Shown here: piece by piece, positions 5,139-64,000 of the stretch | Position numbering within the stretch: the first letter of the stretch is position 1 | How the letters are laid out: every line of letters starts with the position of its first letter | NCBI RefSeq assembly: GCF_058153355.1 | Contig: NZ_CM177019.1 | Reading direction: 5' to 3' (one strand) | DNA: 64,000 nt | Notes under the pieces: generated by a model | The model's input: the letters and a program-made list of their open reading frames with translations, nothing else | Databases searched by the model: none | What the model was told of the DNA's origin: nothing | Program-made: the position numbers and the translations under genes

Positions 5139-5918
5139 CTAAATCGCTTCAGTTTCACAACTAACAGAATAAAAAAACGGCAGCTCAAGGCTGTAATGCC
5201 AGTCAGTTAAGCAACTGACTGGCTCTTTTTCGGGGCTGTGGGGTATTTCCAGGGCCTCTCCTTTACCACTCTCGGGAAGGCCCTTTCCCTTCTTGTCGGT
5301 AATTTCACTGGTTGTCCCATACTTGCAAGATCGCGCATCAGCTCCGGTATACGTCCCGGTGAAGCGCATGGCGTCCGTCATCGACGTCAGCAGATGGCTG
5401 GTCAGTTCCATCTGGCAGACCATTTTGACCTGCGGGTAGAGCGCCGGGTTCTCGGCATGTGTCTGGCGGGGGAAGGCTGCATCGTTCTCTGGTGTATCCG
5501 GTGTGCGCCAGAACACACCATCGATGGCCAGCAGGGTCAGGCCGCACCAGTGCGGATGCGGCGTGGCGTTATGCCAGAGCTGCGCTGTTTTCGTGAACAC
5601 GCGGCGGACAGCCTCACTTCCCAGGCGCTGGCGGGCCTGAATAACGGCACTGGGGGCAACGAAGGGGCGATTGCCCGGCAGCATGATGTCCAGGCGATTC
5701 ACAATCTGGTGAAGAGGTTCTTTACGCTCAAGCGCCATGCCAACAATACACCAGACCATCATTTCGAGGGGAAGACGGCGCTTGCGTAGCGTTACAGTAC
5801 CTGATTCGGCAAGGCAACGAGAGATGAGTTCGGGGTCGAGGTAATCCCCCAGAGAAGTCAGTGGGTTACGCAGAGAATCGTAACGGGATACCAGATCAAG
5901 AGCCTGTCCAATGTGCAT
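5139..5918 (-). pseudogene. IS4-type DDE transposase, truncated and fused to flanking sequence
   Basis: N-terminus MHIGQALDLVSRYDSL... and AIDG motif typical of IS4 transposase; ORF runs through the right IS end into host DNA, C-terminal half missing. Confidence 0.7.
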
Positions 5919-6002
5919 AAAAAAATCCGGAAACGAGTGAGCGTTTCCGGATTCTTACACAGGCACTGGATCGGTCAACTGATCCTTAACTGATCGGCAT
6001 TA
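5194..6002. mobile_element. IS4-family insertion sequence, internally deleted derivative (809 bp)
   Basis: Imperfect terminal inverted repeats TAATGCC(A/G)...CAGTTAAG at both ends; identical 13-bp direct repeats CAGCTCAAGGCTG at 5181-5193 and 6003-6015. Confidence 0.75.
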
Positions 6003-6038
6003 CAGCTCAAGGCTGCCGTTTTGTGTTTCAGGTTTCTG

Positions 6039-6776
6039 TTATGTATTGCTGCTGTTTGCGGCGATGATTTTCGCTACTTTTTCAGCTTGCGCATTCATCT
6101 GCATCTGACGGTATGCATTTTCCATCAGCGGCAGCGCATCACGCGTAGCCTGGGTATCCGGATAGTCGCGCAACATGCCTTCTACGCGGTTAACGACAGC
6201 AACCCATGCACCACGTTCTGTATAATACTCGGCAACGGAGTATTCATATTTCGCCAGACGATCTTTCAGGAATACCAGACGTTTGGTGGCATCGGTGGTG
6301 TACTGACTGTTCGGATAGCCGCGCACCAGTTTGGAAAAGTCACTAAACGCAGCTCGTGCATGTTGAGGATCGCGATCGCTACGGTCAACGCCAAAGAACC
6401 CTTGCAGCGCACTGTCATCCAGCGCCATATTGGTCAGGCCACGCATGTACATGACATAATCGATATTCGGATGGGTCGGGTTAAGGCGAATAAAACGATC
6501 GATGGCAGCCTGTGCTAACGGCAAATCGGCGTTTTTATAGTAGGCGTAGATGAGATCCAGCTGCACCTGCTGCGAATACGGACCAAACGGATAGCGATTA
6601 TCTAACGCTTCCAGTTGCGTTATTGCCTGTCTCCAGTTACCGTCCTGCAGCTTTTGTTGTGCAGTCGCGTAAATTTCATTTGGCGGATTATCAGGTACTT
6701 CTTCCTTTGACCCCGAGCAACCCGCCAAAAACAGGCTTAGTGTGGCGGCTGCCACCAGATATTTCATGCGCGTCAT
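6039..6776 (-). CDS. bamD: Outer membrane protein assembly factor BamD (TPR lipoprotein)
   Basis: 245-aa ORF, lipobox LFLAGCSG, recognised as BamD/YfiO. Confidence 0.95.
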
Positions 6777-6910
6777 GACGTTTTGACTTTCCTCAAAATG
6801 TAATACGGGAGATTCTCTGTTCCTGCTCCCGGTTAAGACCAGCTACAATAGCACACTATATTAAACGGCAAAGCCGTAAAACCCCAACGATAAACGAAGA
6901 AGCAGTATAT

Positions 6911-7891
6911 ATGGCACAACGAGTACAGCTCACTGCAACGGTGTCCGAAAACCAACTCGGTCAACGCTTAGATCAGGCTTTGGCCGAAATGTTCCCGGAT
7001 TATTCACGTTCGCGAATAAAAGAATGGATCCTCGACCAGCGCGTGCTGGTTAACGGCAAAGTTTGTGATAAGCCGAAAGAAAAAGTATTGGGTGGCGAGC
7101 AGGTGGCCATCAACGCTGAGATTGAAGAAGAAGCGCGTTTTGAACCGCAGGATATCCCGCTGGATATCGTCTATGAAGATGAAGATATCATCGTCATTAA
7201 TAAACCACGCGACCTGGTGGTACATCCTGGCGCGGGTAACCCGGATGGCACGGTACTGAATGCGTTGCTTCATTATTATCCGCCCATTGCCGATGTACCG
7301 CGTGCGGGCATCGTCCATCGTCTGGATAAAGACACCACCGGCCTGATGGTTGTGGCAAAAACCGTTCCGGCTCAGACGCGTTTAGTCGAATCTTTGCAAC
7401 GGCGTGAAATTACTCGTGAGTATGAAGCGGTGGCAATTGGTCATATGACCGCTGGCGGTACAGTAGATGAACCAATCAGCCGCCACCCGACCAAACGTAC
7501 TCACATGGCGGTGCATCCGATGGGTAAACCGGCGGTCACTCACTATCGCATCATGGAACACTTCCGTGTGCACACGCGTCTGCGGTTGCGTCTGGAAACC
7601 GGACGTACGCACCAGATCCGCGTGCATATGGCCCATATCACTCATCCGCTCGTGGGCGATCCGGTTTATGGCGGCCGTCCGCGTCCGCCAAAAGGTGCTT
7701 CGGAAGCGTTTATCTCCACGCTGCGTAAGTTTGACCGCCAGGCGCTTCATGCAACCATGCTGCGTCTTTATCACCCGATCTCCGGCATCGAAATGGAATG
7801 GCATGCGCCTATTCCACAAGATATGGTGGAGCTGATTGAGGTGATGCGCGCCGATTTCGAAGAGCATAAGGATGAAGTGGACTGGTTATGA
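6911..7891 (+). CDS. rluD: 23S rRNA pseudouridine synthase D
   Basis: 326-aa ORF with S4 domain N-terminus and HRLDKDTTG catalytic motif. Confidence 0.95.
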   Translation: MAQRVQLTATVSENQLGQRLDQALAEMFPDYSRSRIKEWILDQRVLVNGKVCDKPKEKVLGGEQVAINAEIEEEARFEPQDIPLDIVYEDEDIIVINKPRDLVVHPGAGNPDGTVLNALLHYYPPIADVPRAGIVHRLDKDTTGLMVVAKTVPAQTRLVESLQRREITREYEAVAIGHMTAGGTVDEPISRHPTKRTHMAVHPMGKPAVTHYRIMEHFRVHTRLRLRLETGRTHQIRVHMAHITHPLVGDPVYGGRPRPPKGASEAFISTLRKFDRQALHATMLRLYHPISGIEMEWHAPIPQDMVELIEVMRADFEEHKDEVDWL

Positions 7892-34094: not shown

Positions 34095-35050
34095 TGAAGC
34101 AACTTTGGTTTGCCATGTCATTAGTGACAGGTAGCCTGTTATTCTCTGCTAACGCCTCGGCCACTCCCGCGTCCGGGGCGTTATTACAGCAGATGAACCT
34201 GGCCAGTCAGTCACTGAATTACGAGCTGTCATTCATCAGCATCAATAAACAGGGTGTTGAGTCTCTGCGTTATCGACATGCACGCCTCGATAACCGTCCT
34301 CTTGCACAATTGTTGCAAATGGATGGCCCGCGCCGGGAAGTGGTACAGCGCGGCAATGAAATCAGCTACTTTGAACCGGGCCTTGAACCGTTCACGCTTA
34401 ATGGCGATTACATTGTTGATTCTCTGCCATCGCTCATCTATACCGATTTCAAACGCCTTTCTCCTTACTACGATTTTATCTCCGTGGGACGCACGCGTAT
34501 TGCTGATCGTCTTTGCGAAGTCATTCGCGTGGTGGCCCGTGATGGCACACGCTATAGCTACATCGTGTGGATGGACACCGAATCGAAATTACCGATGCGG
34601 GTTGATCTCCTTGATCGCGATGGTGAAACGCTGGAACAATTTCGCGTGATTGCTTTTAACGTTAATCAGGATATCAGCAGCAGTATGCAGACGCTGGCGA
34701 AAGCAAATCTGCCGCCGCTGCTTTCTGTTCCTGTAGGTGAAAAAGCTAAATTCAGCTGGACGCCAACCTGGTTGCCACAGGGGTTTAGTGAAGTTTCCAG
34801 CAGCCGACGTCCGTTACCGACGATGGACAACATGCCTATCGAATCACGTCTCTATTCCGACGGATTATTCAGTTTCTCGGTAAACGTTAACCGCGCTACG
34901 CCATCGAGCACCGATCAGATGTTGCGCACCGGACGCAGAACCGTCAGTACAAGCGTACGTGATAACGCCGAAATCACCATTGTCGGCGAACTGCCGCCAC
35001 AAACGGCGAAACGCATTGCCGAGAATATTAAGTTTGGGGCAGCGCAATGA
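34094..35050 (+). CDS. rseB: Sigma-E regulatory protein RseB
   Basis: 318-aa ORF with signal peptide, start overlaps rseA stop. Confidence 0.95.
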   Translation: MKQLWFAMSLVTGSLLFSANASATPASGALLQQMNLASQSLNYELSFISINKQGVESLRYRHARLDNRPLAQLLQMDGPRREVVQRGNEISYFEPGLEPFTLNGDYIVDSLPSLIYTDFKRLSPYYDFISVGRTRIADRLCEVIRVVARDGTRYSYIVWMDTESKLPMRVDLLDRDGETLEQFRVIAFNVNQDISSSMQTLAKANLPPLLSVPVGEKAKFSWTPTWLPQGFSEVSSSRRPLPTMDNMPIESRLYSDGLFSFSVNVNRATPSSTDQMLRTGRRTVSTSVRDNAEITIVGELPPQTAKRIAENIKFGAAQ

Positions 35051-57015: not shown

Positions 57016-57708
57016 TCAGAGCAGAACGGAGTACCAAAATACTTGGCCTATAATCCTGATTTTATTAGCCTCTTGATTAAAATACTCTTCGTCTGCGTAT
57101 TCATCCCTATTGAAAGAGCGTATCCGGAGTCCGCTTGGGAGACGGTACAATAGTTTGACACGAAGTAATCCGTCTTGGTCTATAGCGTACATTTGACCAT
57201 CTTTTACACCTGTTTTTGATGTATCTATGCCGACGACAGCGCCATCCGGTAATACCGGTTCCATGCTGTTGCCGTGGATGCTGACACAAGCCGCACAATT
57301 TACGTCAACACCTGCTTTGCGCAACGTTGAACGGGCGAATCTTAACTTACATCCCATTCGATCTATATCAACATAAGTACCATTACCGGCAGATAGTTCA
57401 ATTTCCTGATAGAACGGTATTTCCACTTCATCATCCTCTAATGGCGTTGATGAGTCCCATACAGAAAACCCCCCTTCAACTTGTGCATTAGAATGTATTT
57501 CTTTGGTATCGCTTGTTTTGCCTGAAAGTAGCCACTCTGGAGAAACGTTCAATGCTTCGGCCAGATTTATAAGATTTTTCCCGTTAGGTGTAGTGTTTCC
57601 GGATTCCCATTGTGAAATCGTGGCTTTAGTTAGACCAATACGTTTAGCAAGCGCATCCTGCGTTAGGTGGACATTGCGACGAGCCTCGCGAATACGATCA
57701 TTAATCAT
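57016..57708 (-). CDS. cI: CI-type phage repressor (HTH + S24 LexA-like peptidase)
   Basis: 230-aa ORF; N-terminal LTQDALAKRIGLTKATISQWESG HTH; C-terminal S24 autopeptidase-like domain. Confidence 0.85.
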   Translation of the reverse strand: MINDRIREARRNVHLTQDALAKRIGLTKATISQWESGNTTPNGKNLINLAEALNVSPEWLLSGKTSDTKEIHSNAQVEGGFSVWDSSTPLEDDEVEIPFYQEIELSAGNGTYVDIDRMGCKLRFARSTLRKAGVDVNCAACVSIHGNSMEPVLPDGAVVGIDTSKTGVKDGQMYAIDQDGLLRVKLLYRLPSGLRIRSFNRDEYADEEYFNQEANKIRIIGQVFWYSVLL

Positions 57709-57821
57709 GGTTTTACCCTCATATAGTTTAGTTAGCTTAACTTAATCAGGGTATCGCTTTCTTGACTTATTGGTTTAGCTTTCTTAACCTCATATAACCA
57801 TATATTTCCTGGGTAACGGTT
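57709..57821. promoter_or_regulatory. Divergent promoter/operator region between cI and cro
   Basis: Rightward TTGACT (57772-57777) and TATAAC (57793-57798); repeated CTTAAC(C) half-sites at 57736 and 57783. Confidence 0.55.
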
Positions 57822-58004
57822 ATGAAAAAAGCAGAAGCAATTGAGCTTGCAGGAAGTAAAGCGAAACTAGCGAGACTATTGAAGGTTTCCAAAGGAGCCG
57901 TATCTCAATGGGGGGAGGAAATTCCAGAGCTAAGAGCTCTTCAACTTGAAAAGATTTTGGAGCAAAAAAATGTAGTCAAACAAAAAGGCGTAACCCATGT
58001 CTGA
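57822..58004 (+). CDS. cro: Cro-like HTH regulator
   Basis: 60-aa ORF with LAGSKAKLARLLKVSKGAVSQW HTH, divergent from cI. Confidence 0.65.
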   Translation: MKKAEAIELAGSKAKLARLLKVSKGAVSQWGEEIPELRALQLEKILEQKNVVKQKGVTHV

Positions 58005-60261
58005 TAACAAACCATGGGGAGCTACGCCCGATGAGTGGTTCCACTTCGATCTGGTGTTGGGGATGACAGACAGGCTTTTACCTGTGGTGTCCAATCCCTG
58101 TGCAGAACTGTCGCCTAATAGCAAGCTGTCTCATAATTTCGGCAAAACTCCCTGTTGCTACAATGGTCAACGTAAGGTTGTTGGTATCCCCGACTGGGCT
58201 AACTATGTTGTTACGGAAAACGATTTTGCCCGGTGGTCGAACGAACCCGATTACGGTATTTGCGTTCGTACTGGCGACGGGGTGGTGGCTCTGGACTGCG
58301 ATATCAATGACGCCGGGATGCAGGAGATCGTACGCAATATTATCCTGTCATGCCTGGGGGAACTTCCGCCACGTCGCTGGCGGGCTGACAGTCATAAATG
58401 CCTGTACCTGATTGCTGTTGATGGCGACTACCGTAAACGTGGTCACCGCCTGGAAGGCGAAAATAAACAAATAGAGCTGCTCGCTAAGGGCCAGCAGTTT
58501 GTGGCTTGTGGTACCCATCCGGCAGGCGAACGTATTCAGTGGGACTGCGGTTTGCCCGGCGAACCTCTGAAAATTACATCTGAACAGCTCGAAAGCCTGT
58601 GGCAGCGCCTGGCGGATAACTTACCCGTGAAAGACAGCTATACCGCAGGTGCGGGACGTCAGCGTGACCTTTCCTGTGTCGATCCTTCCGCGACAGATGA
58701 TGTCGCCGACTGGCTTGACGCGAACGGGTGGACTCTGTCGGTCAGCTCTGATGGTTCCCGCAATCTGAAACCGTTTCGGGATGAGTCAGAATACAGCAAC
58801 GGTTGCAGCGAAACATCCATTAAGTATTTCCCAAAAGGGACGGGGGGATTTGAACAGGGACATTTTAAAAGCATGCACAACACCGATGCGGGGCTTACTG
58901 ATGCCGACTGGCTGGAAGGCTACGGCTATACGCAATCTCTGTTCGAAGATCTCACGGTGGCTGAAGATGGCGATAAGCCTGAATTTACCGATATTAATAC
59001 AGATATGACAGCCCATTTTCTGGAACGCTTTATCTACGTCATCGAGGGTGACCAGGTATGTGATCTTAGCCGACCGCCATATCAGTGCATGATGGATATG
59101 AAGTCGTTCAAAAACCTGATGGCGCCTTACCAGTTCCCGCCAGAAGGGAAAGGGCAACCAGTCCCCGCAACCAAACGGTGGATAGAGCATCGGCATAAGA
59201 AGATTGCTGAGACGACAGGCTATAAGCCCGGTGCGGGACGTATTATCGAGCGTTTCGACGGGCGGTTTGAAATAAACGAATTTTATATGCCTGAACATCC
59301 ACGTACAGCGGATACAAGTAAGGTGTCCACGTTCCTTAATCATATGGCGTATCTGGTACCTGATGCCTGGCAGCGCGAGTTTTTCATCGCCCGTCTGGGA
59401 TGGATGGTTCAGCGTCCGGAGCGTCGATGCCCGATTTCTATTCTGCATGTGGCTACCGCACATGGTACGGGCAGAGGATGGGTCAGCCAGTTAATGGAGC
59501 GTGTGCTTGGTCCGTGGAACTGTGCTCGTACTCGCATGAAGATCCTGTGCGATAACCAGTTCCATGACTATCTGTACAATACGCTTCTATGCACCATTGA
59601 CGAGGTGCGCGAAAACGATAAGCGGTATGAGGTGAACGATAAGATCCGTGACGTGCTGACAGAACCACGGTTTGAAGTGAACCGCAAATATGGCAGCAAA
59701 AAAACGATGGATATATACACTGGCTTTCTGTTCTACACCAACCACTTTGATGCGCTGGCGCTGCCAGAGGAAGACAGACGTATCGCTGTGCTGGGGGGGC
59801 CTGACTTCGCCGCAACTGAAGAGCATTACGCCAGCCTGTACGGTGCGCTAAGCGACAGCGACTTTATCGCCCAGGTGTACTGGTATCTGATGGGTGTTGA
59901 CCTGTCTCGCTTTAACTGGCAGCGCGCCCCCGAGACGAAAGAACGCTTTCTGATGATTGAAAGCAATAAGAGCGATGTGGAGGCTGCTCTTATTGAAATC
60001 CTGGATAATCCGCCTGTGCCAGCAATGACTTATCAACAAATTGTTAACGCAATACTGGCAGAAGCAGGAATGGATGTAGAAATTAACCAGAAGCACATAA
60101 CAAAGCTATTGCGAGAAAAAACAAAAAGACAGCCAACAGATTTAGTAAAAATTGACGGAATGGGTTATCGCTTCTGGATACTTGCAAAAAATTGCGACTT
60201 CAATAATGAGGAATTGCGCGAAATATATAAAACTTGCGAAATTTTGCAATCTGGATTGTAA
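57997..60261 (+). CDS. Bifunctional primase-polymerase (PrimPol) fused to C-terminal NTPase/helicase-like domain
   Basis: 754-aa ORF; N-terminal PrimPol-like region; Walker B-like LLCTIDEV; start overlaps cro stop. Confidence 0.75.
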   Translation: MSDNKPWGATPDEWFHFDLVLGMTDRLLPVVSNPCAELSPNSKLSHNFGKTPCCYNGQRKVVGIPDWANYVVTENDFARWSNEPDYGICVRTGDGVVALDCDINDAGMQEIVRNIILSCLGELPPRRWRADSHKCLYLIAVDGDYRKRGHRLEGENKQIELLAKGQQFVACGTHPAGERIQWDCGLPGEPLKITSEQLESLWQRLADNLPVKDSYTAGAGRQRDLSCVDPSATDDVADWLDANGWTLSVSSDGSRNLKPFRDESEYSNGCSETSIKYFPKGTGGFEQGHFKSMHNTDAGLTDADWLEGYGYTQSLFEDLTVAEDGDKPEFTDINTDMTAHFLERFIYVIEGDQVCDLSRPPYQCMMDMKSFKNLMAPYQFPPEGKGQPVPATKRWIEHRHKKIAETTGYKPGAGRIIERFDGRFEINEFYMPEHPRTADTSKVSTFLNHMAYLVPDAWQREFFIARLGWMVQRPERRCPISILHVATAHGTGRGWVSQLMERVLGPWNCARTRMKILCDNQFHDYLYNTLLCTIDEVRENDKRYEVNDKIRDVLTEPRFEVNRKYGSKKTMDIYTGFLFYTNHFDALALPEEDRRIAVLGGPDFAATEEHYASLYGALSDSDFIAQVYWYLMGVDLSRFNWQRAPETKERFLMIESNKSDVEAALIEILDNPPVPAMTYQQIVNAILAEAGMDVEINQKHITKLLREKTKRQPTDLVKIDGMGYRFWILAKNCDFNNEELREIYKTCEILQSGL

Positions 60262-60530
60262 AAAGGTAACAGTAAGGTAACAGTAAAACGACTAACTGTT
60301 ACCTTGAAAATATCAATAAATTCACATGGATAGCTAAAAAAGGTAACAGGTAACAGTAGTATTTAGTTTATATACGCGAGACTTTATATTATACGTGCTA
60401 TACCTGCACATACGTATATAGAACTAAAAGCAACTGTTACCTGTTACCCAAAACGGGGTTAAGCCTTATGTGGCACGCCCTACAGGAGGTAACAGTTAGC
60501 TATTTATCTGTTACCTTACTGTTACCTCAA
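60262..60530. repeat. Iteron array, putative phage origin of replication
   Basis: Ten copies of GGTAACAG (five per orientation, several as tandem pairs) flanking an AT-rich core at 60361-60420. Confidence 0.75.
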
Positions 60531-60577
60531 CAATAAACTTGCAGAAAACTGCAAATAGCTAAGTGGAGTAAACAAAC

Positions 60578-60997
60578 ATGCAAAAAATACAAGTTTCAAA
60601 AATGATAGAAAATGAAACAGCGGAACCGGGAGAAGCATCCACGGCCATACGTTCAGTGGAAGCCGAGACAACCCGAAGGTTTTGGGTCGTAGAGCCCATT
60701 ATTGACAGGGATCAGACTCCCGCAGGTGAGGTTTTTTGGTTCCGCAGGGTGATTGCCTGGGCTGTTGTTCTTGAGCAACTGGAGGGTTTCTCACCGGTTT
60801 CTGCGGTACGTCCGCTTGCTCTGGATAGCGATCTGGGTCAACTGGAGGTTTCCCACGGCAACGTTGTTGAGCTGGAAGATATTCCAAAGGGCGCGACACA
60901 CACTTCCCCGGAGAAAATAGCATCTCGCAAACTGCCTGATGGGTTAGAGATGTCGTTAGACCTTGCGGTAAACGAGTTCTTCTTCCCTGTTGGGTGA
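60578..60997 (+). CDS. Hypothetical phage protein
   Basis: 139-aa ORF between origin and Q gene; no recognised motif. Confidence 0.4.
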   Translation: MQKIQVSKMIENETAEPGEASTAIRSVEAETTRRFWVVEPIIDRDQTPAGEVFWFRRVIAWAVVLEQLEGFSPVSAVRPLALDSDLGQLEVSHGNVVELEDIPKGATHTSPEKIASRKLPDGLEMSLDLAVNEFFFPVG

Positions 60998-61045
60998 TAA
61001 TCTTAGAAAAGTTTTTCCGTAACAAAACGTAGAGAGCAGATAACT

Positions 61046-61468
61046 ATGCGCAGAGATATGCAACTTGTTCTGGAGCGGTGGGGGCGATGGGCCGCGAGCG
61101 AGGAATACTGTTCAATGGTTGACTGGCCTTCGATGTCGGTGATGCCTCAACGCGTAACCGCCAGTGGCAAACCCGGTTGCTCCGACGAGGACGGAGCCGC
61201 AATTGACACCTGCATCGCCCACATGAGCATGGTGTGTCCGCATGACGACTTGCTGGTTCTTGGCCTACGTTTCATCGGCGGCTTTTCTACGCGCTCAATC
61301 GCTGAATCTGTGAATCGTAGCCACCTTAGCGTCAGAACATCGCTTAGAGCGTCAGAGGCATTTCTTGAGGGAGCGCTGGTGCTCCAGGGAATTCGACTGG
61401 ATATGGACCCTGAAGTTGCTTTACCTGAAAAGGTTGTGTGCGCACAAAAACATGTGCTATGGTTGTAG
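61046..61468 (+). CDS. Q-like late-gene antiterminator
   Basis: 140-aa ORF MRRDMQLVLERWGRWAA... resembling prophage Q N-termini; located just before lysis cassette. Confidence 0.65.
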   Translation: MRRDMQLVLERWGRWAASEEYCSMVDWPSMSVMPQRVTASGKPGCSDEDGAAIDTCIAHMSMVCPHDDLLVLGLRFIGGFSTRSIAESVNRSHLSVRTSLRASEAFLEGALVLQGIRLDMDPEVALPEKVVCAQKHVLWL

Positions 61469-61497
61469 CATCTAGAATTGTATTCTACGTTCTGAAA

Positions 61498-61521
61498 GGC
61501 TCCCGCAAGGGGGCCTTTTTT
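61498..61521 (+). terminator. Intrinsic terminator after Q gene
   Basis: GGCTCCC-GCAA-GGGGGCC followed by TTTTTT. Confidence 0.7.
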
Positions 61522-61751
61522 AATGCTCTATTCTCAGTAAAAGTTAATAAAACAGGGTTTTCGTCGCGAAAAAACGCTATGCATTTTTTGCCCTTTTTTA
61601 TGCACCTTTTATTCACTCGAATTTCGTCATTCTGGACCACTTAAGTTGATTAAATAGGCCTTTCATCGCAAATCTATTGCGAGCGGTGATCGTGTGGTTC
61701 CTATAACGTACATTATGTTAAATAACTTCCTTTTTTTAACAAATTTAACAA

Positions 61752-61775
61752 GGTTCGCTATGGCGAACTTTTTTT
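61752..61775 (+). terminator. Intrinsic terminator upstream of lysis genes (tR'-like)
   Basis: GGTTCGC-TATG-GCGAAC followed by TTTTTTT. Confidence 0.7.
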
Positions 61776-61876
61776 GTATTCAGGGCCCACCGAAGGACGG
61801 CTCATAACCCAATCCTACGGGCGTATACGCAGGGCCCGCCTTTCAACAACACCCCGTAATGGCGGAGGTGGGAAGT

Positions 61877-62218
61877 ATGAAAATGCACAATGCTCCTCAT
61901 TCCTGGCCTGGCTTACTGGAACTCTTACAAAGTTGGTGGCGTGGAGATACGCCGTTGGGCGCAGTGGTTATGTCAATTGTTATGGCTGGTTTGCGCATCG
62001 CCTATTTTGGCGGTGGCGGCGGCTGGAAACGAAAAACGCTCGAGATTTTGCTCTGTGGCGCTCTGACGCTGACTTTTGCATCCGCTCTTGAGTATGTCGG
62101 ATGGCCTAAATCACTTTCTGTTGCCATTGGTGGTGGTGTTGGGCTGATCGGTGTCGATGCTATTCGTGGGGCTGCAATGCGAGTAATCGGTAACAAGTTT
62201 GGTGGCTCTAAGGAGTAA
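61877..62218 (+). CDS. Putative holin (three TM segments, MKM dual-start motif)
   Basis: ORF 61859..62218 trimmed to MKMHN after GGAGG SD; three hydrophobic segments; directly upstream of endolysin. Confidence 0.55.
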   Translation: MKMHNAPHSWPGLLELLQSWWRGDTPLGAVVMSIVMAGLRIAYFGGGGGWKRKTLEILLCGALTLTFASALEYVGWPKSLSVAIGGGVGLIGVDAIRGAAMRVIGNKFGGSKE

Positions 62219-62221
62219 TTC

Positions 62222-62698
62222 ATGCAGACACTAAATTCCCAACGTAAAGCTTTCCTGGATATGGTGGCCTGGTCAGAAGGAACGGATAACGGGCGACAAC
62301 CGACACGTAATCACGGTTATGACGTTATCGTCGGAGGTGAGTTGTTCACTGATTACTCCGATCACCCTCGCAAACTTGTCACGCTAAACCCGAAGCTTAA
62401 ATCAACAGCCGCAGGCCGGTATCAGCTTCTTTCACGCTGGTGGGATGCCTACCGCAAGCAGCTTGGCCTGAAAGATTTTTCGCCAGAAAGTCAGGACGCT
62501 GTGGCGCTGCAGCAGATTAAAGAGCGTGGCGCTTTACCGATGATTGACCGTGGCGATATTCGTCAGGCAATCGACCGTTGCAGCAATATCTGGGCGTCGT
62601 TACCTGGTGCAGGTTACGGTCAGTATGAACATAAAATCGGTGACCTGATTTCCAGGTTTAAAGATGCTGGTGGGGTGGTAAATGAAGCTGACTTATAA
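62222..62698 (+). CDS. R: Lambda R-type endolysin (lytic transglycosylase)
   Basis: 158-aa ORF; QRKAFLDMVAWSEGTDNGRQPTRNHGYDVIVGGELFTDYSDHP is near-identical to recalled lambda R. Confidence 0.92.
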   Translation: MQTLNSQRKAFLDMVAWSEGTDNGRQPTRNHGYDVIVGGELFTDYSDHPRKLVTLNPKLKSTAAGRYQLLSRWWDAYRKQLGLKDFSPESQDAVALQQIKERGALPMIDRGDIRQAIDRCSNIWASLPGAGYGQYEHKIGDLISRFKDAGGVVNEADL

Positions 62699-63206
62699 GA
62701 TTGTCATCGCGGCATTTTTCTTCTCTGTCTTTGGGGCGCTCGTCTGGTCTGCAAACCATTACCACAGCAAGTATCAGGCAGAAAAGTTGCGGGCTGATAA
62801 AGCGGAAGGTGAAGCTGAATATCAAGGGAAAGTGATAGCTAATCAGGCATTAAACTTCAATCGTTTTAACCAGATAGCAGAAAACGCAAGCCGATTAAAT
62901 TCTCTGGTCGACATCGGTCACGAGAAGACAGTCATCAAATACCGTGAGGTTTTGCTCCGTGAAAAGAACTGTGATTTCCCTGTTCCTGTTGATATTGCTG
63001 TCGGGTTGCTCAACTACGCGAACCGTTTACGCGCCAGCGCATTGCACTCCGATTCCGGGGACATTGACTCAGCCGGTGATCGTGCCACTACCACCAGAAC
63101 GTTGACATATTGCCAGGCTGTTCTGTGGATTAACCCACTGTTGGCAGCCATCGAGAAGGCGAATAACCAGTTGGCTGGTGTCCGACAAATAGAACAGTCC
63201 CGGTAA
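62682..63206 (+). CDS. Rz: Rz-like i-spanin
   Basis: 174-aa ORF with N-terminal TM helix and coiled-coil body, overlapping end of R. Confidence 0.7.
   Translation: MKLTYKIVIAAFFFSVFGALVWSANHYHSKYQAEKLRADKAEGEAEYQGKVIANQALNFNRFNQIAENASRLNSLVDIGHEKTVIKYREVLLREKNCDFPVPVDIAVGLLNYANRLRASALHSDSGDIDSAGDRATTTRTLTYCQAVLWINPLLAAIEKANNQLAGVRQIEQSR
62959..63105 (+). CDS. Rz1: Rz1-like o-spanin lipoprotein embedded in +1 frame of Rz
   Basis: Unlisted 48-codon ORF (GTG start, GAGG SD): KRTVISLFLLILLSGC lipobox then Pro-rich STTRTVYAPAHCTPIPGTLTQPVIVPLPPER. Confidence 0.65.
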   Translation: MKRTVISLFLLILLSGCSTTRTVYAPAHCTPIPGTLTQPVIVPLPPER

Positions 63207-63267
63207 TAGCATTACAGAAGCTCTTCCTGGAGGGGCTTCGATAATGACCTGATAACTGGAAAATAAA

Positions 63268-63840
63268 ATGACTAAGAAGCTGAAAGCAAAACACGAGGTG
63301 TTTTGTCGCGAGTTTCTTGTCGATCTGAATGCTACACAAGCAGCTATTCGCGCAGGCTACGCCTCCAGGCGAGCACATGTTACGGGGGCTGAACTATACG
63401 GTAAACCTGAGATACGCGCCCGTATTAACGAGCTAAAGCAGGAGCGTATTGATCAACTGGGCATTGATGCGAATTATATGCTGATGCGACTGGTTGAGAT
63501 CGACAGGCTCGATGTGGCTGACATCCTGGAGGACGATTTAAGTATTAAGCCTCTGTCTGCGTGGCCGGAATCGTGGCGTCGGTACCTGAGTGGATTTAAC
63601 CTCGCTGAAATGTTTGAGGGGCGAGGAGATGACAGAGAAATGGTCGGGATCCTTAAAAAGATTAAGTGGCCTGATAAGGTTAAAAACCTTGAGTTGCTTG
63701 GGCGTCATGTTTCTGTTCAGGCGTTTAAAGACAACGTCAAAAATGAAGTGACTGGCGCTGATGGAGGACCAGTCAGAACAGAAATTACCAACTTAACGCC
63801 GGAGCAGGCTGCAGAGGCGTATAGAAAAATGATGGGCTAA
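63268..63840 (+). CDS. Terminase small subunit
   Basis: 190-aa [27 protein letters not shown] matches terminase small-subunit N-terminal motif. Confidence 0.75.
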
Positions 63841-63842
63841 GT

Positions 63843-64000
63843 ATGCCGTTACCATTCCCCTTCGATTTTAAACATCCTGATTACCAGATGGTTTTTGAAT
63901 GGCGGATGGAACGCCTACAGCGCATTCGCCAGAATCCTGAAATATTGCCTGCACTAAAACAGTTTTACCGTACCAACCCGGCTCAGTTCATTATCGACTG
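63843..64000 (+). CDS. Terminase large subunit, N-terminal fragment (continues beyond window)
   Basis: ATG at 63843 right after small subunit; open to window end. Confidence 0.55.

Follow-up and report, generated by a model that had tools for sequence, protein, structure and literature searches.

We analyzed the DNA between the antiterminator gene Q and the holin gene of an integrated prophage, in a 64,000-nucleotide stretch of contig NZ_CM177019.1 (RefSeq assembly GCF_058153355.1). This whole stretch is called the window here, all positions refer to it, and related loci are given by numbers beginning with L. As a result, we think it likely that the interval consists of two unrelated devices placed end to end. 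The first is a Q-dependent late-promoter unit, which would overlap the 3' end of Q and end at an intrinsic terminator (T1), and the second is a Xer recombination site of the cer/psi class, which is followed by another terminator (T2) ahead of the holin gene (Table 1). A sequence-only reading of the same DNA had reported strong terminators at 61498-61521 and 61752-61775 around a ~230-bp AT-rich non-coding stretch. Both are indeed there, with slightly refined limits, and the stretch between them, 61522-61749, measures 228 bp and has 34.2% G+C, against 50.1% for the whole window. Its small open reading frames (ORFs) of 68, 51 and 37 amino acids are not kept among relatives, in which 10-bp indels and whole-segment swaps speak against coding potential. 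The same reading had also placed a Q-dependent late promoter, a qut site and a short terminated RNA in this stretch. The concept survives, with a Q protein of family PF06530, a conserved promoter footprint and T1, but its placement between the terminators does not.

The DNA between T1 and T2 is, by its sequence, a Xer site of the cer/psi class. Sites of this class are composed of a dif-like core and about 180-200 bp of accessory DNA on the XerC side, bound at a fixed position by PepA and by ArgR or ArcA (PMC5357621, PMC11724359, 10.64898/2026.02.23.706985). In the window the core occupies 61696-61723 and comprises 28 bp in an 11-6-11 arrangement, with the inner arm bases TATAA/TTATG matching at 4/5. 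Both arms were compared with the E. coli dif sequence, of which TTATGTTAAAT is the XerD arm. This 11-mer has a single exact copy in the 64-kb window, at the core. Moreover, it begins many of the plasmid Xer recombination sites (xrs) in the supplement of PMC11724359, the GGTTC... prefix of the window XerC arm also occurs among the plasmid xrs listed there, and a full-text literature search with the second conserved block returned dif papers. In Xer sites generally the XerD arm is the most conserved part, the XerC arm is less so and the central region is free (PMC11724359). We collected 30 core variants; they all have the same XerD arm, their XerC arms differ, and their central regions, of which there are more than 12 (CGACCA, CGGTCA, CGTCCA, GAACCC and others), are all 6 bp long. 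The Xer identity is supported because this pattern of variation fits those rules.

The accessory DNA points in the same direction. On the XerC side, conservation extends at fixed spacing over about 150 bp, which comprise Block A (61549-61619), a middle portion of lower conservation and a core-proximal part. We searched for Block A with the pattern ACGCTATGCA-N12-TTTTATGCAC, which excludes the core, and found an exact XerD arm at a fixed distance in 116/127 matches. The distance from block to core is 139 bp in 80 matches, 129 bp in 34, and 169, 137 and 140 bp in one each, the 139-, 129- and 169-bp spacings differing by whole helical turns. The core-proximal part aligns with psi of pSC101 (72.7% over 44 bp) and more closely with the psi-like site on E. 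coli plasmids of the pECO-b75 type, which are 47 kb long (83.6% over 55 bp, E = 2e-12); this site is listed in the supplement of PMC11724359.

The secondary-factor site is where the window departs from its class. Block A holds three TATKCA direct repeats, of which TTATGCACC and TTATTCACT are 9-mers 2 bp apart, forming a pair centred 88.5 bp upstream of the XerC arm, and CTATGCATT lies 21 bp farther upstream. By our count, the equivalent position is taken by the ArcA box in psi (about 89 bp) and in phage sites of the ArcA type (about 91 bp). Neither an ArgR box nor an ArcA box is present in the window accessory region where it would be expected. Relatives with a similar core do have ArcA boxes, and the window site is best filed as a variant and not as a cer or psi member. 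By eye, we also compared the repeats with known consensuses. The half-sites fit an ARG box, but all run in one direction and are spaced by 5 instead of 4. No fit was seen with the ArcA box, the DnaA box TTATNCACA agrees at 8/9 with two repeats 2 bp apart, and the direct-repeat sites of the OmpR family (PhoP, KdpE and CreB, with an 11-bp period) were considered as well. None of these resemblances is convincing, and those to ARG half-sites, DnaA boxes and OmpR-family repeats serve as leads at most. The motifs of Block A are absent from the site lists of PMC11724359, and in our plasmid collection Block A has a single matching record, in which the core is lost.

Direct traces of recombination are found in one relative. 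The viral contig L168 (IMGVR_UViG_2571042794_000002, 5216-7737) is a phage with two cores 2494 bp apart, and between them lies a complete ColE1-type plasmid, with Rop and a YgdI/YgdR lipoprotein, which is 99.8% identical to pC15_004 of Enterobacter hormaechei. The distance from core to core equals the length of the plasmid, 2494 bp. The core of the phage parent (L028) has the XerC arm GGTGCGCGCAA, the central region CGTCCA and the XerD arm TTATGTTAAAT, while that of the plasmid parent pC15_004 has GGTGCGGGCAA, CGGATG and TTATGGTAAAT. In L168, the left junction reads GGTGCGCGCAA, CGGATG and TTATGGTAAAT, and the right junction GGTGCGGGCAA, CGTCCA and TTATGTTAAAT. The two junctions are thus hybrids of the parental cores and exactly reciprocal, the switch from one parent to the other falling between XerC arm and central region. 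Recombination at cer proceeds by XerC-only strand exchange (PMC5357621), and the joint fits this mode since it falls at the XerC exchange point. An assembly artefact appears unlikely, as the parents share too little sequence. The reciprocal hybrid cores argue that phage sites of this family are live Xer substrates, and they suggest that such phages capture plasmids, and possibly transduce them, through Xer.

We then considered how widely the module is distributed. In 144/5426 complete E. coli genomes the T1-to-holin DNA is present almost unchanged, and partial matches to it occur in a Yersinia phage, in an Enterobacter plasmid and in the 47-kb E. coli plasmids. The combination of accessory region and core is present in more than 200 viral contigs, and the Block-A pattern alone in more than 120. 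It is found in several settings, namely after Q, before the holin gene, in the gap between terS and terL, before a probable small terminase gene, and in the gap between terL and the portal gene. All these positions would lie downstream of tR', the late-promoter terminator, and would be transcribed only late. A second scan, anchored on the core and therefore unbiased as to the accessory region, gave three accessory types: variants of Block A, a near-perfect ArcA box (GTTAATAAAATGTTA) and a cer-like region, the last in L168 (73% identical to ColE1 cer over 131 bp). Downstream of Q homologues that share 64-67% identity with the window Q, T1 is followed immediately by the ArcA-box type, in the place of Block A, which indicates that accessory classes replace one another in the same genomic slot.

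Such co-location with late genes raises the question of whether the 190-bp module is a late-operon signal that merely looks like a Xer site, either an activator-dependent late promoter or a pac/cos site of the terminase. The module always stands in the late or packaging region and in the late-gene orientation (before holin, before terS, in terS-terL or in terL-portal), there are up to two copies per genome, its phased upstream repeats are of the sort seen at activator or terminase sites, and in L217 and L219 a gene like Ogr/Delta adjoins it. We nevertheless regard this explanation as very improbable. The core is a canonical 11-6-11 with the exact dif XerD arm, the flanks are homologous to psi-type plasmid sites, regions with an ArcA box stand in for Block A in relatives, and a plasmid has recombined with a site of the family precisely where XerC exchanges strands. 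Moreover, no promoter geometry of the sigma-70 or TGT-N12-ACA kind was found in the module, and in the one record checked, Yersinia phage YP3, the module lies at about 34,290-34,490 of 36,990 bp and not at the ends of the linear record. The sequence as read likewise fits none of a sigma-54 promoter, a P2-type TGT-N12-ACA activator site, a miniature inverted-repeat transposable element with terminal inverted repeats, and cos/pac.

An attP for Xer-mediated integration at the chromosomal dif can be given almost no credence. The dif-like core with its exact XerD arm is what such an element would have, and the integrative mobile elements exploiting Xer (IMEX), such as CTX-phi and VGJ-phi, are known phage users of Xer (PMC5357621). 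However, the prophage encodes a tyrosine integrase of its own and is located beside yfhL, not at dif; the site is intact, internal to the prophage and has a single core; and its accessory sequences are those typical of resolution sites. A structured RNA gene, suggested by the inverted repeat AAAACAGGGCG/CGCCCTGTTTT in the module, was rejected because the pairing partners vary by family, and the Xer identity accounts for the conservation. A search for tRNA genes between Q and the holin gene, where Stx phages have them, found none, and no Rfam family scored above its gathering score in 60000-63000. The best Rfam match, AaHKsRNA20, reached 27 bits against a cutoff of 43 and was driven by T1.

The late-promoter unit was recognized by comparing Q genes. 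PF06530 is the family of Q21 and Q933W (bioRxiv 10.1101/651190), and for Q21 the binding element lies between -35 and -10 and loading requires that the initial transcribed region contain a -10-like element (PMC6606751). Homologues of the window Q (27 loci, 49-100% identical) were aligned over the 3' part of Q and the DNA flanking it, which gave 21 distinct sequences. The resulting footprint, 61434-61478, overlaps the last 11 codons of Q, and in it the bases critical for sigma-70 are kept, while those between vary (Table 1). In fact, 61431-61480 is better conserved than the preceding coding sequence (0.92 vs 0.58 in L216, and 0.86 vs 0.59 in L219). The predicted -35 and -10 hexamers are 18 bp apart, the middle three bases of the -10 hexamer are variable, and the extended -10 is followed 15 bp further on by TAGAAT, of which TAAAAT, TATAAT and TAAGAT are variants (T 20/21, A 19/21, A 20/21, A 21/21 and T 21/21 at the individual positions).

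The slot at 61438-61445 is filled by a perfect palindrome that covaries. Five of them occur across the homologues, GTGCGCAC, GGGTACCC, GGGCGCCC, GTGTACAC and GGACGTCC, and the residues they encode differ; just after them, CAAAAA at 61445-50 is invariant. The palindrome partly tracks a residue of the recognition helix of Q, since VRT and VRK go with GTGCGCAC and VRR goes three times with GTGTACAC; misfits are L224 (VRR with another sequence) and L217 (VRK with GGGTACCC). Taken together, a Q-dependent late promoter most likely overlaps the end of Q upstream of T1, and Q probably loads through the covarying palindrome. The assignment rests on conservation, from which we infer the start, the pause and the binding of Q to the palindrome. 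T1 begins at about +25 from the predicted start in every homologue, and because footprint and T1 are shared by all of them, T1 is probably the tR' of this promoter, ending an RNA of ~50 nt. We also propose that T1 terminates the early operon that contains Q. A promoter after T1 is unlikely, as there is no room for one in L208-215, where a gene follows T1 almost directly and the Xer module is absent past ...AAAACAGG, or in L230, where T1, a second terminator and holin stand in series with no Xer site.

In the 144-amino-acid Q lineage (L030, L063, L090 and L151), we noticed a parallel invariant block, ...TGCG-N3-CGCAAAAAC-TGCGCTACGCT...TTGAAT..., within the ~60 nt that precede T1, and this points to a promoter-in-gene design like that of the window, with another palindrome.

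These data also bear on the layout implied by the sequence-only reading, in which T1 would merely end the early operon, the promoter and qut would lie in the 230 bp, and T2 would end the leader RNA, as in Shiga toxin (Stx) phages. In Min27, whose Q is also of PF06530, two terminators follow Q with about 100 nt of AT-rich DNA between them, in which the late promoter presumably lies, and in the window T2 lies about 26 nt past TGnTAAATA, an extended -10-like sequence in the XerD arm. We find this layout quite improbable for the window. The + strand of 61522-61749 contains no promoter in a consensus scan, and its best position weight matrix (PWM) score, 7.3 bits, is at background; the XerD-arm sequence was rejected as a promoter because its -7 position is not conserved, being A, C or T in relatives. 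The footprint is upstream of T1 in all homologues, and Q homologues without the segment retain footprint and T1. In turn, the segment also occurs without Q or without T2, in terS-terL and terL-portal. Furthermore, the T1-to-holin DNA is found after three Q lineages that share only 30-34% identity and have different recognition helices, and between lineages homology begins at the T1 hairpin; a binding site specific for one Q is therefore unlikely in that DNA. For annotation, the lesson would be that two terminators after Q need not mean the Stx-phage layout of terminator, promoter and terminator.

As for the terminators themselves, T1 has a stem of 7 G-C/G-U pairs, lengthened by A-U pairs from 61494, a GCAA loop of the GNRA type and a T6 tract at 61516-21. 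T2 has a 9-bp stem with seven U residues after it, so that both have the make-up of intrinsic terminators. A 51-nt fragment with T1 folds at -21.1 kcal/mol (z = -4.8, 0/200 shuffles as stable), the range over fragments being -21 to -22.6 kcal/mol with z of about -4.5 to -4.8. The hairpin energy of T2 alone is ordinary (-10.4 kcal/mol, z = -1.4, 17/200 shuffles as stable). In 59000-64000 there are 7 terminator-like sites against 4.8 +/- 2.2 expected, an excess that is not significant alone. It is the comparative evidence that carries the case and confirms both as terminators. T1 follows Q in 21/21 distinct homologue sequences, with at least 7 stem sequences of -15 to -20 kcal/mol each (the variants were folded singly, their alignment being out of register for formal pair counting), and the other two Q lineages also have it, their stem changes being compensatory. 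Hairpins like T2 with other stems (GCTCGC/GCGGGC and others) come after the Xer site in relatives. A terminator stands on the XerD side in 25/29 distinct phage sites of the ArcA type and in 27/139 of the Block-A type, and some of these resemble T2 (ACAAGGTCGCC... vs ACAAGGTTCGC... in the window). T2 looks like the right end of the Xer cassette.

Several observations weigh against the interpretation as two devices. On the promoter side, the extended -10 is the top + strand PWM candidate in 61380-61880, yet its 8.8 bits are within the background for any 500 nt (median 7.1, 90th percentile 9.6); PWM scoring in fact separated no candidate from background and was dropped as a discriminator. Because its -35 matches at only 3/6, the late promoter was also missed by the consensus scan, which found no + strand sigma-70 promoter above its threshold in 59000-64000. 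Where Q21 uses two TGAGCA direct repeats 8 bp apart (PMC6606751), the candidate Q site of the window is a palindrome of 8 bp that covaries; no TGAGCA repeats are present between the -35 and -10 of the window promoter. The third Q lineage (L002 type) has an extra ORF of 113 codons between Q and T1, and the promoter was not located there. On the Xer side, the window XerC arm agrees with dif at only 8/11, the box for ArgR or ArcA that helps to define cer and psi is missing, and plasmid capture was seen not at the window copy but in a relative whose XerC arm is different. The module is always co-oriented with the late genes, an orientation that a pure recombination site does not need. Of the distinct Block-A sites, 98/139 are without flanking terminators and inside late operons, which makes it doubtful that the site requires a transcription-free pocket. 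Finally, many relatives have two direct-repeat Xer sites around essential genes, for which dimer resolution alone is insufficient. Such pairs occur in L036 (at 2641 and 6535), in L137 (at 2401 and 4698) and at about 25 further loci, 2.3-3.9 kb apart, and in the phages of the third context they enclose terL, portal and a MuF-like gene. The central regions are unlike in every pair found, and in the pairs examined the first site is of the Block-A type and the second of the ArcA-box type with a strong terminator after it.

Some of these points would suit a real Xer site with a job other than dimer resolution, that is, an inactive relic of a plasmid site, or a docking or exchange site for plasmids or phage modules. 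The divergent XerC arm and the missing box would agree with a relic; the natural phage::plasmid cointegrate in L168, the cassette-like arrangement of two sites around terL-portal-MuF and the interchangeability of accessory classes at the core would agree with exchange. We judge this alternative unlikely, although it carries more weight than the others. The XerD arm is invariant and the accessory phasing is kept in hundreds of phage contigs from several genera, which speaks for selection and not for decay. Xer sites that depend on accessory sequences favour intramolecular resolution (10.64898/2026.02.23.706985), and the scanned prophages of the window type (the window, L130 and L234) have a single copy each. 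For the window's own copy, Xer activity, the accessory proteins and the role in dimer resolution are what we infer from these comparisons.

The sequence of events that we propose is the following. A sigma-70 promoter in the last 11 codons of Q would start transcription near 61470, sigma would re-bind TAGAAT at +4 to +9, and the polymerase would pause. Without Q, the RNA would terminate at T1 after roughly 50 nt. With Q, which would load via GTGCGCAC between -35 and -10, the modified polymerase would pass T1, the Xer DNA and T2 and reach the S-R-Rz and terminase genes. The substrate of the second device would be a supercoiled circle with two direct-repeat copies of the site, for example a dimer of the circular phage replicon. 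Host PepA and a second factor on the TTATKCA repeats would interwrap the two accessory regions, and strand exchange by XerC/XerD would turn the dimer back to monomers. In the single-copy integrated prophage the Xer site would be inert, and T2 would block unmodified polymerase ahead of the lysis genes.

A broader proposal, which joins the two devices, can be offered only tentatively, and we hold it with more doubt than belief. The phased TTATKCA repeats, which would be bound by neither ArgR nor ArcA, might define a third accessory class of Xer sites in tailed phages of Enterobacterales. Such a site might remain silent downstream of tR' during circular replication and then be swept by Q-modified polymerase, so that resolution is off when concatemers are wanted; it might also be a docking point for cer plasmids by XerC exchange, as in L168, the plasmids being packaged and transduced with the phage.

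If these interpretations are correct, Xer multimer-resolution sites would be common in tailed temperate phages and not confined to plasmids and chromosomes; the scale is 144/5426 complete E. coli genomes for this version alone, to which phages of Klebsiella, Yersinia and Enterobacter have to be added. These phages would pass through a circular replicon stage in which dimers cause trouble, and the factor that binds TTATKCA would be a new partner for the PepA/XerCD machinery. Small plasmids, mobilisable or not, would have a concrete route to move inside phage particles. Moreover, a promoter in the Q frame with a covarying palindrome would supply natural matched pairs of Q and site for studying how antiterminator specificity evolves. 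Full-text literature searches, with incomplete coverage, brought up no account of sites of the cer/psi type in tailed phages of enterobacteria, which is absence of evidence only.

Compared with known systems, the window site differs from cer and psi in its secondary-factor site and in the kind of carrier, while core, architecture and proximal DNA are alike. With psi it shares the 28-bp core, the 6-bp central region, a XerD arm of the form TTATGTTAAA(T/C), the XerC-side accessory region with homologous proximal DNA, and a factor site about 89 bp from the XerC arm. However, TTATKCA direct repeats take the place of the ArcA box of psi, and the carrier is an integrated tailed prophage with the site in its late-gene leader, whereas psi is on a plasmid. 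With cer it shares the class, that is, XerCD with about 180 bp of accessory DNA, and a cer-type plasmid recombined with a phage site of the family. Unlike the window site, cer has an 8-bp central region, the arm TTATGGTAAAT, a palindromic ARG box (TGCAT-N4-ATKCA) and a Pcer/Rcd unit; the half-site-like repeats of the window all have one orientation, with an internal spacing of 5 bp and not 4 bp, and no counterpart of Rcd was found at the window Xer site. The IMEX (CTX-phi, VGJ-phi and TLC-phi) also carry dif-like sites that use host XerCD (PMC5357621), but these are attP sites of filamentous phages for integration at dif, without accessory DNA of the cer/psi type, whereas the window site is internal and the prophage has an integrase. 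The proposed job, keeping a circular phage replicon monomeric, is that of Cre/lox in P1 (PMC2409434) and of other multimer-resolution systems encoded by phages or plasmids; P1 has its own recombinase, while the window prophage would use host XerCD and host accessory proteins, like small plasmids.

For the promoter unit, phages 21 and 933W are the nearest models. They have a PF06530 Q, a promoter for sigma-70 with a -10-like element in the initial transcribed region, and close by an intrinsic terminator that ends a short RNA, all of which the window unit would share. In those phages the promoter is downstream of Q (cf. Min27), whereas in the window it would overlap the 3' end of Q, and the window Q bears only a distant resemblance to Q21 (E = 0.85 in a comparison with the solved structure). 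The unit appears to be of the Q21-type design, perhaps a variant of it, with a palindromic candidate site and compressed into the reading frame of Q.

Table 1. Positions and supporting evidence of the features between the start of Q and the end of the holin gene in the window
Feature	Position	Strand	Evidence or remark
Q antiterminator gene, 140 amino acids	61046..61468	+	PF06530 Phage_antitermQ, E = 1.8e-30, 118/118 profile positions
Predicted -35 of late promoter PR', TTGTGT	61434..61439	+	T, T, G kept in 21/21, 21/21, 20/21
Palindrome GTGCGCAC, 8 bp; candidate Q-binding element	61438..61445	n/a	About -32 to -25; covaries among homologues
Predicted extended -10, TGTGc + TATGGT	61453..61463	+	T-R-T-G 21/21 each; T-12 21/21, A-11 21/21, T-7 20/21
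Predicted transcription start, A	61470	+	7 bases past the -10 hexamer; A or G in homologues
-10-like TAGAAT; predicted sigma-dependent pause element	61473..61478	+	+4 to +9; TAnnAT kept
Terminator T1	61494-61521	+	Hairpin and T-tract; stem GGCUCCC/GGGGGCC, 61498-61504 / 61509-61515
Putative Xer accessory sequences	61549..61695	n/a	Block A, less conserved middle, core-proximal part; ~150 bp, XerC side only
TATKCA direct repeats, three	61577..61617	+	CTATGCATT 61577-85, TTATGCACC 61598-606, TTATTCACT 61609-17; sequence and alignments
Putative XerC-binding arm GGTTCCTATAA	61696..61706	+	8/11 identical to dif arm
Central region CGTACA, 6 bp	61707..61712	+	Length constant, sequence free
Putative XerD-binding arm TTATGTTAAAT	61713..61723	+	11/11 identical to E. 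coli dif XerD arm
Promoter-like TTAAAA-16-CATAAT over core	61712..61739	-	Sole consensus promoter match in interval; PWM 7.3-8.3 bits, not above background
T-run and AACAAAT beyond XerD arm	61731..61744	+	Kept next to core in Block-A pattern matches, plasmid L004 and second sites
Terminator T2	61750-61775	+	9-bp stem 61750-58 / 61763-71, TATG loop, T7 to 61775; found by consensus scan
Holin leader, 59.6% G+C	61778..61876	+	Predicted GGGCCC/GGGCCC long-range pairing over about 45 nt, z = -1.5 only
Holin gene, lambda-S-like dual start (M-K-M)	61877..62218	+	PF05106, E = 4.4e-27

The remaining features of the interval are minor ones. Read on the - strand, the T-run beyond the XerD arm gives a -35-like TTMAAA, 15-16 bp from a CATAAT within the core; this promoter-like site may be incidental, since the Xer core sequence forces the CATAAT. 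The holin leader is invariant in the four aligned E. coli sequences (the window and three relatives), and related leaders occur in L043 and L204. By analogy with the sdi structure of lambda, it may control dual-start (M-K-M) translation. RefSeq relatives annotate a holin gene of 342 bp, which corresponds to the start at 61877, while the ORF finder placed the start at 61859. Downstream of holin are an endolysin gene, Rz with an embedded Rz1-like ORF, and the small terminase subunit.

The prophage has its own tyrosine integrase, adjoining yfhL, a family-A DNA polymerase and a primase-helicase, and an iteron-type origin adjoins the primase-helicase gene about 1.2 kb upstream of the Xer site. The GTAACAG heptamer occurs 15 times in the window, where 5.5 +/- 2.4 copies would be expected, and 10 of these lie in 60262-60530, in both orientations. 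The cluster flanks an AT-rich core near 60360-60420, right after the primase-helicase gene (57997-60261; Prim-Pol and DUF5906), and is probably the phage replication origin. A weak match to Rfam 'CRISPR-DR61' at 60489-60525 consists of the GTAACAG iterons only. Given the iteron-type origin, the primase-helicase and its own DNA polymerase, the prophage likely replicates as an autonomous circle. In the early control region, 57709-57800, between the gene of a LexA-like repressor (- strand, start near 57708) and a cro-like gene, we noticed TTGACTTATTG-...-TAACCT and repeated operator-like motifs of the TTAGCT type. The first 11 bases of the TTGACTTATTG motif match the -35 region of lambda PR', which is probably a coincidence.

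A few observations concern relatives. In Klebsiella phage Mulock (L231, MN098327), the 237 bp that separate terL from the portal gene are taken up by Block-A Xer sites (1340-1541). Modules of the Mulock type also matched twelve further phage records, mostly Klebsiella prophages, and ST11-VIM1phi8.3 has one again in the terL-portal gap; the module is unannotated or partly under the terL annotation. In L217 and L219, a small Cys-rich ORF (MMHCPLCGKAAHTRSSRYLSATTKERYHKC...) lies about 90-300 nt past the Q stop, between T1 and the Block-A Xer site. It resembles the late activators Ogr of P2 and Delta of P4, in which case a Q antiterminator and an Ogr-like activator would be side by side. In L012, the accessory region is broken after ...CATCGCAAATC by a sequence beginning GGCACTGTTGCAAA, presumably the terminal repeat of IS26, which would mean that an insertion sequence has inactivated the site. 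In L007 (Enterobacter plasmid pE76_003), L057 and L071, Block A follows Q, and a DUF6904 gene replaces the core and the proximal accessory DNA; L007, a 77-kb circular plasmid with phage genes that has lost its Xer site, is perhaps a phage-plasmid.

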